A model generated the notes under the pieces. It was not told the DNA's origin, made no database searches, and was given only the letters and a program-made list of their open reading frames with translations. A stretch of DNA of 52,776 nucleotides. Origin: Candidatus Staskawiczbacteria bacterium. Lineage in GTDB: Bacteria > Patescibacteriota > Minisyncoccia > Minisyncoccales > Staskawiczbacteraceae. The first letter of the stretch is position 1; each line of letters starts with the position of its first letter. The DNA lies in NCBI GenBank assembly GCA_943357015.1, contig CALRFZ010000001.1, positions 1-52,776 on the forward strand, given 5' to 3'. The position numbers were made by a program, and so were the translations under genes. Shown here in pieces: positions 47,919-51,567 of this stretch.

Positions 47919-47946
47919 TTGACATATACCTATAATATGCTATAAT
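47919..47946 (+). promoter_or_regulatory. Candidate sigma-70-type promoter for the DGR target operon
   Basis: TTGACA (47919-47924), a 16-nt spacer, then TATAAT (47941-47946). A second cccttgaca copy lies 20 nt upstream (47896-47904). Confidence 0.5.
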
Positions 47947-47997
47947 TAGAACATAGTGAAAATAGCACTTTTATAGCTTAAAATTACTTGCAAAAGA

Positions 47998-48051
47998 GCA
48001 GTCATAGCCAAAAGGCAATAGAATAAAGTATTGTTTTCTGGCTGTGACTGC
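47998..48051 (+). promoter_or_regulatory. 5'-leader hairpin of DGR target gene 1
   Basis: gcagtcatagcca (47998-48010) pairs with tggctgtgactgc (48039-48051), a 13-bp stem with one G-U. The homologous hairpin precedes target gene 2. Confidence 0.45.
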
Positions 48052-48104
48052 CAATTTGGTATGTCAAGCAAGAGATTGGCGAAAACCCAAAAGGAGAAAA
48101 CGCC

Positions 48105-48752
48105 ATGAGTATCCAGACTCAGACCAACAAGTTCACGGCCACGATTCTGCAGAATCTCCCGGAAGTTCCGGAAGACATCATGCAGAATTGGATCGAGAAC
48201 CCCAAGGCGCTCCAAAAGCTCCTTTCGGGTCTCGTTCCTCCGGTCAACGGTTCTGCCACCGAGTTCAAGATCTGGAAGACCCTGAAGCTCCGTACGGGCA
48301 TCGATGCCGATGGCTATCGCAAAACCATCAAAGGCAAGAAGGTGGGTAGCAAGAAGATGGACATCGGCGACTACGCCAACGACATCCTCGGCAAACCCGC
48401 GTTCGCCGTCGTCACGGAAGAAACCGAACTCGATCTCGTCGTGGTCAGTGTCGCCGAACTTGGTTTCAAGAACGGAGCCAAGCTGAAGGACATCTACGAT
48501 CGGGCCAAGGAGAAGGGTCTCCAGCTTTGCCCGAACCAGGTTGGTCCTGAACTGCGCTTGCAGTACGAAGACCAACCCAACGGTGAGTGGCTCGTGATCG
48601 GCATGGAGCCGATTACCGACTCGGACGGCGGTCTCTACGTGTTCTACGTCGAACACAATGTCAGCGATCTGTGGCTCAGCACGCACTATGACTACCCGGG
48701 CCTCCTCTGGTTCAGCAACGATCGCTTCGTGTTCGTTCTCCCGCGCAAGTGA
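48105..48752 (+). CDS. DGR target protein 1 (C-terminal variable region); family unassigned
   Basis: 215-aa ORF with an AAGGAG RBS 8 nt upstream. It is GC-rich with GC3-biased codons. The last 46 codons are VR1. About 55-60% identical by eye to the next gene. No signal peptide or TM segment. Confidence 0.85.
   Translation: MSIQTQTNKFTATILQNLPEVPEDIMQNWIENPKALQKLLSGLVPPVNGSATEFKIWKTLKLRTGIDADGYRKTIKGKKVGSKKMDIGDYANDILGKPAFAVVTEETELDLVVVSVAELGFKNGAKLKDIYDRAKEKGLQLCPNQVGPELRLQYEDQPNGEWLVIGMEPITDSDGGLYVFYVEHNVSDLWLSTHYDYPGLLWFSNDRFVFVLPRK
48612..48748 (+). repeat. DGR variable region VR1
   Basis: 137 bp collinear with TR 50029-50165. I count 15 mismatches by hand, all at TR adenines (for example AAC to TAC, AGC, CAC, CTC or TTC). 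The 3' A-free tail tcgcttcgtgttcgttctcccgcgc is identical. Confidence 0.9.
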
Positions 48753-48848
48753 TCTTCAAGTTGTCTCTGGTAACTTGGAATCTGTGCTCTCTGTTGAGCA
48801 CTTGGTTTCTTGGAACCATCGCAACAAGCTCTTCTTGCATTTTCCAAA

Positions 48849-48932
48849 GGCCGCGGTCAGTTAACCATACTGATTCGCGGCCCCATTTCAGAGTAATTTA
48901 CCCAAAGTAGATTTTTCTGAAATGGGAAGCTC
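48849..48932 (+). terminator. Two consecutive hairpins downstream of target 1 (attenuator/terminator-like)
   Basis: Hairpin 1 is ggccgcg...cgcggcc (48849-48882), with an inner tcagt/actga pairing. Hairpin 2 is a 10-bp stem, ccatttcaga (48883-48892) with tctgaaatgg (48916-48925), followed by a T-rich tract. Confidence 0.55.
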
Positions 48933-48949
48933 TTTTATTTTTAAAAACT

Positions 48950-48997
48950 AGTCACAGCAATAAGTCCGTAACTTATTATTGATTTATTGCTGTGACT
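48950..48997 (+). promoter_or_regulatory. 5'-leader hairpin of DGR target gene 2
   Basis: Perfect 14-bp stem: agtcacagcaataa (48950-48963) with ttattgctgtgact (48984-48997). The 3' arm (gctgtgact) and the downstream leader (caagca..ggcgaaa.ccc..aagga.aaa.cgccATG) are conserved with target 1. Confidence 0.45.
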
Positions 48998-49662: not shown

Positions 49663-49737
49663 CTTCAGGTTGCTCTTGGTCTCTTGGATCTTCTGCCCTT
49701 TATTGGACATTTGGTTCCTTGAAACTCGGAAACAACA

Positions 49738-49782
49738 AACCCCTCAATGCAAACGGAAATTGCAAAGAGGGGTTCTTTTTTT
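49738..49782 (+). terminator. Intrinsic terminator after target 2
   Basis: aacccctc (49738-49745) pairs with gaggggtt (49767-49774), with an inner tgca/tgca pairing, followed by CTTTTTTT. Confidence 0.75.
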
Positions 49783-50028
49783 AAATCAATATGATAGTAT
49801 ATAAATCGGATAGTAGGCTATTATCAAGTCTGCGGTTACGGCTTCAGGCAGCCGAATTCTATATTTCAGGACTATGCAGAATCAAGGCGGTTACGGCTTC
49901 TTTGAGCGTCATACCTGATTAGTAAAAAATGAAGATACTTGGTGTAAAGCGTTAGGGTATAAAAGATACCGAATCAATTCAGCCCTGAGAGTATTCGAGG
50001 GGTGGTGGCAGGGGGAGACGCTTTATAC

Positions 50029-50165
50029 ATTACCGACTCGGACGGCGATCTCAACGTGTTCAACGTCGAACACAATGACAACGATCTGTGGCTCAACACG
50101 AACTATGACAACCCGGACAACATCTGGAACAGCAACAATCGCTTCGTGTTCGTTCTCCCGCGCAA
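50029..50165 (+). repeat. DGR template repeat (TR)
   Basis: Non-coding copy of the target C-terminus. About 40 adenines by hand count. 11 Asn codons in the VR frame (9 AAC and 2 AAT: ITDSDGDLNVFNVEHNDNDLWLNTNYDNPDNIWNSNNRFVFVLPR). It diverges from the VR flanks immediately after ...cgcgcaa (C versus G). The hairpin ctccgc/gcggag (50178-50198) follows. Confidence 0.9.
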
Positions 50166-50200
50166 CTCTCTTTATTTCTCCGCTTCAAAAGGGCGGAGTT

Positions 50201-50530
50201 TTACTTAACAGATTTAATCCAACCTCCGAGCATTTTCCCCACTTCAAGTAATTTTTCAGAAAGATTGATATATTTTTTATCGTCCAGCGATCGAATCTCC
50301 CAGGCAACCTGCAGGAAAAATTTGAGCAAGTCTAATTTAACAGAGGCACGTTTCAGAAAAATCTCTTTTTCTGCTTTATCAGAGTACCCGGCTTTTATGA
50401 CATTTTCTATGACTTCTAAAAACAAGCCATCAATTTTTTGTCCAAGGGTGTGGCGTGAATCTCTTGAGAAATTGGGCAGGATTTCATGCCACAGTTTGTA
50501 AATCAAAACCAACTTTTGGATTATGCTCAA
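50201..50530 (-). CDS. avd: Accessory variability determinant (Avd-like four-helix-bundle protein)
   Basis: 109 aa, basic and helical. IQKLVLIYKLWHEILPNFSRDSRHTLGQKIDGLFLEVIENVIKA fits the Avd pattern. It lies between the TR and the RT gene but on the opposite strand. TTG start as called, with no obvious SD, so the start is uncertain. Confidence 0.78.
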   Translation of the reverse strand: MSIIQKLVLIYKLWHEILPNFSRDSRHTLGQKIDGLFLEVIENVIKAGYSDKAEKEIFLKRASVKLDLLKFFLQVAWEIRSLDDKKYINLSEKLLEVGKMLGGWIKSVK

Positions 50531-50571
50531 ACCAAAAGGCTGGCTGGGGGGGGGTTAGAGGAAACGTTTTT

Positions 50572-51567
50572 ATGAAAATTAGACTGGACCATAAATTTGA
50601 AGATTTAATTGGTATGTTAAACCTGCTTTTGGCGTGGGAGGAGTTTATCAGGGGTAAACGAAACAAGAAAGACGTCCAAGAGTTCTATATGAACCTAATG
50701 GATAACATACTATCACTTCATTATGATTTGTCCAACAAAACATACAGCCACGGAGGATATGAGGAATTTAATATCTCCGACCCAAAGCCTAGGATTATAA
50801 ATAAAGCCAGCGTCCGGGACAGGCTTTTGCATCACGCTGTGTATAGAATATTGTATCCTTTCTTTGACCAAAAATTCATATCAGATTCTTTTTCCTGCCG
50901 TGATGAAAAAGGAACTCATAGGGCGCTTGAAAGGTTCACCTATTTTTATGGCAAAGTCAGTAGAAATAAAACAAGGACATCTTGGGTGTTAAAGTGTGAT
51001 ATTAAAAAATTCTTTCACTCAATCAGCCACCAAACACTATCAAAAATTCTCGAAGAGTGTATTCCAGACAGAGACATTATAAATCTTTTACGGGAGATAA
51101 TTATCAGTTTTAATTCAGGCAAAGCGGGTGTGGGTTTACCGCTGGGGAATTTAACCTCACAGCTTTTTGCTAACGTGTATATGAATGAGTTTGACCAATT
51201 TGTGAAGCACAAACTGAAAGTAAAATACTATATCAGATATGCGGACGATTTTGTGATTTTGTCAGAGAATAAAAGTTATTTGAACGAAATAATTCCGGCT
51301 ATCAGTAATTTTTTGCAAAATAATTTGAGCCTAACCTTGCACCCCGATAAAATCTACATTAAGACACTATATTCCGGTGTAGATTTTCTGGGGTGGGTGA
51401 ATTTCCCAAACCATAAAACTATCAGGAATCGGACAAAAAATAGGATACTAAAGCGGATTAAGGAAAACAGAAATTCAAAGACCTTGAGTTCTTATATCGG
51501 CCTACTTAAGCATGGTAATACTCGCACAGTTAAAGAAAGGGTCTTAAAATTATATGCTGAAAGTTAA
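50572..51567 (+). CDS. DGR-type reverse transcriptase
   Basis: Start set at ATG 50572 (MKIRLDH), with AGAGGA 8 nt upstream. The N-terminal region ..DPKPRIINKASVRDRLLHHAVYRILYPFFDQKFISDSFSCRDEKGTHRAL is typical of DGR RTs. The DGR-diagnostic LGNLTSQ motif is at 51142-51162 and YADD at 51238-51249. 331 aa. No maturase or endonuclease domain. Confidence 0.92.
   Translation: MKIRLDHKFEDLIGMLNLLLAWEEFIRGKRNKKDVQEFYMNLMDNILSLHYDLSNKTYSHGGYEEFNISDPKPRIINKASVRDRLLHHAVYRILYPFFDQKFISDSFSCRDEKGTHRALERFTYFYGKVSRNKTRTSWVLKCDIKKFFHSISHQTLSKILEECIPDRDIINLLREIIISFNSGKAGVGLPLGNLTSQLFANVYMNEFDQFVKHKLKVKYYIRYADDFVILSENKSYLNEIIPAISNFLQNNLSLTLHPDKIYIKTLYSGVDFLGWVNFPNHKTIRNRTKNRILKRIKENRNSKTLSSYIGLLKHGNTRTVKERVLKLYAES

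Follow-up and report, generated by a model that had tools for sequence, protein, structure and literature searches.

A 52,776-nucleotide (nt) stretch of DNA from Candidatus Staskawiczbacteria bacterium, positions 1 to 52,776 of the forward strand of contig CALRFZ010000001.1 (GCA_943357015.1; GTDB lineage Bacteria; Patescibacteriota; Minisyncoccia; Minisyncoccales; Staskawiczbacteraceae), here called the window, almost certainly carries a complete diversity-generating retroelement (DGR). The initial annotation had proposed such an element, consisting of a reverse transcriptase (RT), the accessory protein Avd, one template repeat (TR) and two target genes that each bear a variable region (VR). 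The proposal is borne out by the adenine-only differences between the TR and the VRs, by an RT that resembles the RT of Bordetella phage BPP-1 (bRT), by the Avd protein, and by the position of both VRs at the ends of their open reading frames (ORFs). We are highly confident that the element is of the type found in the candidate phyla radiation (CPR, or Patescibacteria), with the gene architecture known as B3, and that it diversifies the C-terminal ~45 residues of two paralogous proteins of 200-215 amino acids (aa). As a DGR it is one more example among tens of thousands, in a phylum-level group that is already known as the richest in DGRs. Its value lies in the features that this example and its ~80 relatives reveal about a poorly studied lineage, and the features of interest across that lineage are an undescribed structured RNA that carries the TR, a target fold that could not be placed, and a target-specific maintenance of GC content.

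Template repeat, variable regions and their adenine-specific differences

A repeat finder returned exactly the three collinear 137-nt copies that had been proposed, namely VR1 (48612-48748), VR2 (49522-49658) and the TR (50029-50165), all on the + strand. Both VRs end their ORFs, so that they encode the C-terminal ~45 residues of the products of target gene 1 (48105-48752, + strand; 215 aa) and target gene 2 (49051-49662, + strand; 203 aa from the ATG at 49051), which are paralogs with 58% aa identity. When the mismatches were tallied by machine, base by base, the 15 in VR1 and the 23 in VR2 all fell at TR adenines (38/38), and none at the 97 positions where the TR has C, G or T, in agreement with the hand alignment of the initial annotation. 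The TR contains 40 A among its 137 nt, 0/194 non-A comparisons between the TR and the two VRs differ, and the hypergeometric probability of adenine-only mismatches is 1e-9 for VR1 and 1e-15 for VR2. All but one of the 26 sites that vary fall on the first or second codon position, and the 11 Asn codons that had been noted in the VR frame of the TR were counted as 9 AAC and 2 AAT. The same bias is found outside the window, where ~30 related TR/VR pairs have 553 mismatches at A and 18 elsewhere.

The three copies share a 25-nt, A-free and GC-rich tail, which occurs exactly three times in the 52.8-kb window with 0 occurrences expected, and they diverge right after CAA, the next base being C in the TR and G in the two VRs; the homology limits on the TR side are 50029-50165. 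Both observations had been made before, but the interpretation of this boundary as an IMH/IMH* (initiation of mutagenic homing) type calls for a correction. There is no BPP-1-style pair with internal differences, as the tails of the TR and the VRs are identical and only the sequence after CAA differs.

Reverse transcriptase and Avd

The RT gene (50572-51567, + strand) encodes a 331-aa protein that matches Pfam RVT_1 and contains both the LGNLTSQ and the YADD motifs reported for it. Its best match in the PDB is the bRT chain 8ub7_A, with 148 bits versus ~76 for group II intron and 'retron-type' RTs. We take 8ub7_A to be the Bordetella phage DGR RT because its residue numbers agree with those that Handa et al. 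(bioRxiv 10.1101/2023.10.23.563531) give for bRT. The bRT residues K29, F66, R74, I76, D138, G182, Q187, D215 and D216 are kept in the RT of the window, which has I181→L and YMDD→YADD. The Avd-like gene that had been noticed beside the A-rich copy (50201-50530; 109 aa, TTG start) is confirmed by a match to Pfam bAvd PF22296 (67.4 bits, cutoff 40). Its strand, which the initial annotation did not give, is minus, so that avd runs towards the TR and away from the RT. No record was retrieved when the exact sequences of the RT and Avd, in four start-codon variants, were looked up.

Membership in two other classes of retroelement was considered and rejected. The RT scores 147.5 bits with the group II maturase model TIGR04416 (cutoff 300) and 70 bits with the retron_St85_RT model (cutoff 235), neither a group II intron RNA nor a retron msr was matched in Rfam scans, and the template, as is not the case in retrons, matches protein-coding targets.

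A few observations weigh against the identification of the element as a DGR. The RT is placed in the DGR type, on the evidence available, by best-hit margins and signature residues, and Avd, despite 79.5 bits and an E-value of 2e-22 with the NCBIfam model DivGenRetAVD, falls 0.5 bit under the equivalog cutoff of 80. Moreover, neither a conserved GC-rich cruciform nor an IMH/IMH* difference of the BPP-1 kind was found at this element. A GC-rich inverted repeat after the VR, as in the BPP-1 and Legionella type, is not universal, and Wu et al. (2018, PMC5758913) saw it in no more than 34% of DGRs. The hairpin that is present after VR1 (48784-48801) is not conserved at VR2 or in other loci; arrays of CTTGG pentamers occupy this place instead.

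The arrangement of the genes is shared with relatives. Among 79 species-level loci, 32 bear an RT, and in 29 of these, the window included, the parts follow one another as target (+), TR (+), avd (-), RT (+).

A conserved structured RNA upstream of the template repeat

A profile search by nhmmer with the non-coding 238 nt 5' of the TR (49791-50028) gave 47 matches outside the window, with E-values down to 1e-36, and recovered the element in ~45 loci. Wherever a TR was mapped (~30 loci), this upstream RNA element lies between the target and the TR, and in most cases it ends 0 ± 3 nt before the TR. The consensus structure from 34 aligned copies has 53 pairs, of which 42 show compensatory double changes; 97.2% of cells are paired, versus 40-48% in shifted registers, and 0/500 shuffles reach any of the observed measures. 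No match to this RNA was found in Rfam, at the gathering score or even at E ≤ 1, and no description of a conserved RNA 5' of the TR was found in the searchable literature, a search outside which Paul et al. 2017 lies, so that a prior mention there is possible.

In the window, the conserved structured 5' domain of the DGR RNA, delimited by nhmmer and covariation, spans 49809-50028 on the + strand. According to the consensus structure, it begins with the hairpins HP1 (49809-49859) and HP2 (49869-49914), continues with the single-stranded AAAUGAAGA (49927-49935) in a single-stranded stretch, AAAAAAUGAAGA-UACUUGG, that runs to 49942 and of which UACUUGG (49936-49942) is invariant, and closes with a 12-bp helix, P3, formed by 49942-49953 with 50017-50028. 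The 3' strand of P3 runs right up to the TR, and two smaller helices, P4 (49956-60 / 49966-70) and P5 (49982-90 / 49995-50003), lie inside it. The loop regions of HP1 and HP2 (49828-49849 and 49882-49905) have a near-identical loop sequence, CGGUUACGGCUU, and are candidate repeated binding sites for Avd or RT.

The sequence after the TR also takes part in this structure. In most loci the TR is followed by CUCUCUUCAUUU, then by a covarying hairpin, and then by a U-run, UUUUGUUUU. The segment UCUUYAUUU, which starts 3 nt after the TR and in the window is UCUUUAUUU (50169-50177, + strand), is complementary to AAAUGAAGA, and the two would form a long-range helix, which we propose as a primer:template-type duplex. 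Across 29 RNAs, 93.1% of the cells of this helix are paired, versus 46-60% in shifted registers, and there are 10 compensated cells versus 4.0 ± 1.5 in shuffles. At one position, 16 sequences have G-C, 6 have G-U and 5 have A-U; at another, the counts are 19 for G-C, 7 for G-U and 2 for A-U. The hairpin that follows, CTCCGC / GCGGAG with its U-run (50178-50202, + strand; 89% paired, 4/6 pairs covarying), marks the predicted 3' end of the DGR RNA and looks terminator-like, possibly serving also as a protein-binding stem-loop.

The DGR RNA is preceded by a predicted extended -10 promoter (TGaTAGTAT, 49792-49800, + strand), recognized by its agreement with the consensus. A -10 hexamer stands before the first helix in 29/29 full-length loci, at a distance of 6-8 nt in 28 and of 4 nt in one, and the TGn extension is present in 21/29. 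In most related loci, this promoter comes directly after the terminator of the target gene (hairpin and T-run). The corresponding 3' flank of target 2 (49663-49782, + strand) contains CTTGG-type pentamers, then the terminator hairpin CCCCTC (49740-45) / GAGGGG (49767-72), and then a T-run. The TR thus seems to lie within a self-contained RNA of ~400 nt (roughly 49808-50202) with its own promoter and terminator, and the upstream element very likely belongs to the functional DGR RNA.

There are points that count against this description of the RNA. Single-sequence folding of the TR region in the window is not significantly better than that of shuffles (z = -1.33), so that only comparative analysis is informative on the structure, and the ends of the ~400-nt transcript are placed by consensus motifs. 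The long-range helix is short, A/U-rich and highly conserved, which makes its covariation support moderate, and its last pair is unpaired in 7/29 sequences.

A 17-mer of the RNA was also looked up in IMG/VR. None of the 36 matches was accompanied by an RT, avd, a target or the RNA element, and they were set aside as chance matches, which are silent on carriage by phages.

Proposed mechanism of priming

To our knowledge, the BPP-1 ribonucleoprotein (RNP) is the only solved DGR RNP. In this complex, a downstream spacer (Sp) of ~140 nt supplies both primer and scaffold: Sp 53-56 is base-paired to the 3' part of the TR and the 2'-OH of A56 serves as primer, while the directly adjacent Sp 59-70 pairs with a segment just 5' of the TR to form a 'stop' duplex (Handa et al., bioRxiv 10.1101/2023.10.23.563531). 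In the window, the gap between the TR and the stop codon of the convergent avd gene is only 35 nt and is taken up by the hairpin and U-run, and there is therefore no room for a downstream spacer of this type; the distance is 4-38 nt in nearly all related loci. The BPP-1-type spacer RNA 3' of the TR is not present, and the matching duplex partners lie 5' of the TR, so the DGR RNA may work like the BPP-1 RNA without sharing its arrangement.

In the mechanism that we propose, a self-contained transcript of ~400 nt (roughly 49808-50202) would be made first and would be bound in its 5' domain by RT-Avd. AAAUGAAGA (49927-35) would pair with UCUUUAUUU (50169-77), just 3' of the TR, in a primer:template-type duplex, and the neighbouring strand 49942-53 would pair with the 12 nt directly 5' of the TR (50017-28) in a 'stop'-type duplex. 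Synthesis of cDNA would be cis-primed from an adenosine at or next to the strand end, either A49935 or the invariant A49937. The TR would then be copied with misincorporation at adenines, synthesis would be halted at P3, and the cDNA would be exchanged into VR1 or VR2. In BPP-1 the corresponding strands come from the downstream spacer, whereas here the primer-like strand, a 7-nt linker and the stop-like strand would all come from the 5' side of the template. By analogy, this connectivity suggests a circular permutation of the BPP-1 RNA, with the part order of a retron msr-msd. We put the case that the upstream element supplies the primer in this permuted way at a little under an even chance; the priming nucleotide is beyond computational identification, which counts against it. 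The cross-taxon survey of Handa et al. took in 40 nt before the TR and 100 nt after it (bioRxiv 10.1101/2023.10.23.563531), and would have missed the upstream domain because only 40 nt on that side were included.

The strongest competing explanation is that a long, BPP-1-like transcript extends beyond the hairpin and across avd, in antisense, in the direction of the RT, that priming takes place 3' of the TR, and that the upstream element is an accessory, such as a leader, a stabiliser, a loading site for Avd or RT, or a regulator. The TR and the RT are indeed on the same strand, and the stem sequence of the post-TR hairpin is conserved, which would be unneeded for a plain terminator. Furthermore, stem-loops just 3' of the TR, together with upstream/downstream duplexes, were reported for many DGRs, CPR included (Handa et al., bioRxiv 10.1101/2023.10.23.563531). 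However, a conserved U-run (UUUUGUUUU) follows the hairpin in most loci, and the sequence past the hairpin is the coding region for the C-terminus of Avd, so that the protein explains its conservation. The sole large conserved non-coding RNA of the cassette is found 5' of the TR, and its strands pair with both TR flanks in the layout of BPP-1. We consider the BPP-1-like transcript unlikely. The permuted RNA, on the other hand, explains how a cassette with an inverted avd and without a downstream spacer could still form primer and stop duplexes. It also gives a minimal construct (RT, Avd and the 400-nt RNA) for the reconstitution of a CPR DGR, and the new RNA family offers a means of locating TRs and DGRs in metagenomes.

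Flanks and base composition of the target genes

The two target units are homologous not only in their ORFs but from ~100 nt 5' to ~90 nt 3' of them. Target gene 1 has a structured 5' leader (47998-48104, + strand) in which a long hairpin (47998-48051) is followed by a small one (GGCG/CGCC, 48078-48104) around the ribosome-binding site just before the ATG, and target gene 2 has a homologous structured leader with an inverted repeat (48948-49050, + strand). The long hairpin of the leader has 23 bp with a conserved lower stem (GUCAUAGCC / GGCUAUGAC). The leader is also conserved in other genomes, and RNAalifold predicted 29 pairs in it, 13 of them with compensatory changes. Rfam matches on the target leaders were limited to spurious miRNA hairpins. 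Target gene 1 is preceded by a predicted promoter (47919-47946, + strand) that consists of TTGACA, a 16-nt spacer and a TG-extended TATAAT, matching the consensus at 12/12 positions with the TG. A tandem 20-nt direct repeat at 47896-47935 (CCCTTGACAAAACCCCAAAA / CCCTTGACATATACCTATAA) gives two successive -35-like boxes 5' of target 1, the second of which is part of this perfect consensus promoter.

On the 3' side, target 1 has a conserved flank with CTTGG-type pentamers (48753-48830, + strand), homologous to that of target 2. In the 3' flanks of ~30 related targets, CTTNG occurs 3.9 times per 75 nt versus 0.46 in shuffles (~8-fold), and CTTGG 2.0 versus 0.10 times (~20-fold), with the pentamers mostly 7-8 nt apart. 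No CTTGG-type pentamers follow the TR in the window. The same pentamer is part of the invariant single-stranded UACUUGG (49936-49942) beside the proposed priming site, and one may speculate that CTTGG arrays mark recipient genes.

The targets also differ from their genomic surroundings in base composition. Their GC content at third codon positions (GC3) is 0.76 for target 1 and 0.78 for target 2, with A at 7% of third positions, whereas host genes have 0.27-0.32 and the RT and avd 0.41. This excess extends over the whole gene, as the non-VR three-quarters of each target are equally GC-rich, and no monotonic gradient of GC3 decaying away from the VR, the signature of a conversion tract, was found. 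Over 68 loci, the GC3 of targets exceeds that of host genes by a mean of 0.22 (p 1e-12), while the RT differs from host genes by a mean of -0.04, the RT and avd both tracking the host; target GC3 is higher than RT GC3 in 25/25 loci. Between family members with 35-60% aa identity, identity at four-fold sites is 0.36-0.40 where 0.32-0.34 is expected, and GC at these sites is 62-64%. Because the four-fold sites are nearly saturated and yet GC-rich, the bias is being maintained and is no relic of a recent transfer.

A recent horizontal acquisition of GC-rich targets from a GC-rich donor would be one explanation, as GC deviation of DGRs has been taken to indicate recent transfer (Wu et al. 2018, PMC5758913), and a serine recombinase beside tRNA genes and an rve transposase stand on the two sides of the DGR. 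It is, however, at odds with the RT and avd of the same cassette, which stay with the host (-0.04) while the targets depart from it (+0.22, with the target above the RT in 25/25 loci), with family members that stand singly between housekeeping genes and are equally GC-rich, and with the near-saturated four-fold sites at 62-64% GC. Acquisition of this kind is therefore disfavoured, and we consider it improbable.

Long ORFs run antisense across both targets (246 and 226 aa). They were rejected as real genes, as the frame is open in only 17% of the family and its stops fall in number as GC3 rises; they are a by-product of the avoidance of A-ending codons. Even so, the gene caller of the ENA assembly annotated the 226-aa antisense ORF (6926-7606 of locus L121, equal to 49030-49710 of the window, minus strand) instead of target 2, and target 2 is consequently missing from the protein databases. 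The miscall is probably due to the GC-rich third positions of the target, which look foreign in a 32%-GC genome. The targets thus are a clear-cut instance of GC maintenance confined to particular genes of AT-rich genomes, one that misleads gene callers into the wrong strand.

Our overall proposal is that CPR B3 DGRs run on an autonomous, circularly permuted RNA of ~400 nt with scaffold, cis-priming and stop strands 5' of the template, that CUUGG arrays may mark the recipients, and that the GC content of targets is kept by a selective or mutational force linked to the DGR. It is put forward tentatively, as the combination of these parts seems to us somewhat more likely to fail than to hold.

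Target protein family and fold

The target proteins belong to a family without a Pfam model that has at least 621 homologs of ~210 aa. The named ones come nearly all from metagenome-assembled genomes (MAGs) of Patescibacteria (CPR), and the closest from a Staskawiczbacteria MAG. The targets have no match in Pfam or NCBIfam, including no FGE-sulfatase or DUF1566 Pfam signal, a search of PDB sequences with the family profile gave nothing, and a BFVD search with the target gave no significant match (E ≥ 0.83). AlphaFold2 models of the target are confident, with a pLDDT of 90 for the whole protein, and a pLDDT of 95 and a pTM of 0.89 for residues 56-215. The predicted structure comprises an N-terminal three-helix segment and an alpha/beta domain, and the VR would occupy the last three strands and loops of this domain. 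In a Foldseek search of the PDB, carbohydrate-recognition domains (CRDs) of C-type lectins (Mincle, NKp65) came out on top, but the matches are weak (TM 0.28-0.46, E ≥ 0.1), and no solved DGR variable protein was among them. A C-type lectin fold of the modelled VR domain could not be shown, which weighs against the identification as a DGR, and there was no convincing structural match.

Many members of the family are found apart from a DGR cassette. No RT was present in the available sequence (up to 8-10 kb either side) at 47/79 loci. One genome (related locus L001, 3480-4118 and 8001-8630) has two members singly between housekeeping genes, in the orders LeuRS / target / POR and Sua5 / target / NYN, SHMT, and both have kept the same leader and CTTGG flank. 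Such RT-less members are likely to be remote targets. CPR hosts are thought to live attached to host cells, and the family offers a large set of small, intensively diversified proteins whose confident models lack a convincing match.

Evidence for activity

An independent assembly of the same population (ENA ERZ27280317, contig k141_149707) differs from the window by 4 substitutions and one homopolymer length over 9,783 nt. Two of the four substitutions lie in VR2 (49624 and 49631), opposite the TR adenines 50131 and 50138, and the TR and VR1 are identical in the two assemblies; the chance of at least two of four substitutions hitting the 80 TR-adenine sites is p ~4e-4. In addition, four family proteins have identical 164-residue scaffolds and 9-17 differences among their 42-46 VR residues. 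From these comparisons the DGR is likely to be active now or to have been so very recently. It weighs against this view that the case for the window's own element rests on two substitutions between consensus assemblies.

The difference in homopolymer length concerns the poly-G tract (50546-50554) in the 41-nt gap between the divergent start codons of avd and the RT. The tract reads G9 in the window but G10 in the other assembly, which may reflect a homopolymer error or a true, phase-variable difference in length. The short gap and its tract of assembly-dependent length could disturb expression, and would fit a relic, that is, a cassette that once diversified two genes but is now inactive, with frozen differences between VR and TR. 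However, none of the 194 non-adenine comparisons between the TR and the two VRs differ, all RT catalytic residues are intact, 2/4 inter-assembly substitutions fall at TR-adenine sites of VR2, and close relatives have identical scaffolds but different VRs, all of which make a relic quite unlikely. Lastly, chance repeats or ordinary repeats of paralogs, without retroelement-mediated transfer, are refuted even though targets 1 and 2 are paralogs, as the third copy is non-coding, stands beside an RT and avd, and has adenine at every variable position at the probabilities given above.

Genomic setting

The window is a bacterial contig of 32% GC with an RNase P class A gene and tRNA genes. A large serine recombinase gene (46414-47733, minus strand), directly after tRNA-Met and tRNA-Asp genes, lies on one side of the DGR, and an rve-family transposase gene that runs off the end of the window lies on the other, the bracketing regions being 45469-47733 and 51766-52776. 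GC content around the DGR is ~0.40, compared with 0.32 elsewhere in the window, and the DGR may be located in an integrated mobile island. The tRNA-Met at 45469-45540 is called by ARAGORN only and is below the Rfam tRNA gathering score; the other two tRNAs were found by both. Between the tRNA genes, 2 kb from the DGR, there is a 117-aa protein (45624-45977) of the '23S rRNA intervening sequence' four-helix-bundle family (97 bits), which matches the Avd model weakly (NCBIfam 17.8 bits, E 0.003). Two further patches of the window, 5055-5831 and 15240-16169, are mildly GC-enriched (0.42-0.44 per kb); one codes for a NUDIX-domain protein and the other is a 309-aa ORF without a Pfam match.

Comparison with known systems

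The likeness of the proposed RNA to the retron msr-msd RNA is one of layout only, that is, a structured non-coding RNA 5' of the template with ends joined by long-range pairing. In retrons, reverse transcription is primed from a 2'-OH in the 5' part of the RNA; such priming is established there and proposed here. In contrast to retrons, the present element has a non-retron RT, a template that is a protein-coding repeat matching target genes, and an Avd, and the product of a DGR is exchanged into the genome whereas that of a retron accumulates as multicopy single-stranded DNA (msDNA).

With the BPP-1 DGR (mtd-avd-TR-brt), the element shares adenine-specific differences between TR and VR, conserved RT residues, Avd and an A-free, GC-rich 3' tail of VR and TR, and, as predicted from sequence, a pair of neighbouring RNA duplexes holding the TR at its 3' and 5' flanks. 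It differs from BPP-1 in several respects. Its avd is inverted and situated between the TR and the RT, it is without the ~140-nt spacer RNA 3' of the TR and has its scaffold strands 5' of the TR, and its DGR RNA is apparently a transcription unit of its own. The target is neither Mtd-like nor demonstrably a protein with a C-type lectin fold, and the element is cellular with two targets, whereas BPP-1 is a phage tail-fibre system. Compared with variable proteins of C-type lectin fold (Mtd, TvpA, TaqVP and the archaeal variable protein cited by Roux et al.), the modelled targets have in common a compact alpha/beta domain whose C-terminal strands and loops are formed by the VR, but the structural matches are weak (TM 0.32-0.43, E ≥ 0.19, root-mean-square deviation 5-9 Å) despite a model with a pLDDT of 95.

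The closest known systems are the DGRs of the CPR. The B3 architecture, 'TR-(avd)-RT' with avd on the reverse strand, makes up 90% of the DGRs in the CPR set of Wu et al. (2018, PMC5758913). CPR DGRs belong to clade 2 of Roux et al. (2021, PMC8144416), in which targets are typically without recognisable domains and the VR domains may be new variants of the C-type lectin. In the CPR DGR literature searched, outside which Paul et al. 2017 again lies, we found no description of a ~220-nt RNA 5' of the TR, of CTTGG arrays after the VRs or of a GC3 excess of the targets. The present element has in common with the B3 and clade 2 DGRs the way its genes are ordered and oriented (targets, TR, inverted avd, RT), CPR-type hosts, and small targets with a C-terminal VR and no recognisable domain or transmembrane segment. 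Two targets per cassette are a known variation, and there is no defining difference. The DGR is thus an ordinary further member of the already catalogued CPR class (B3, 'clade 2').

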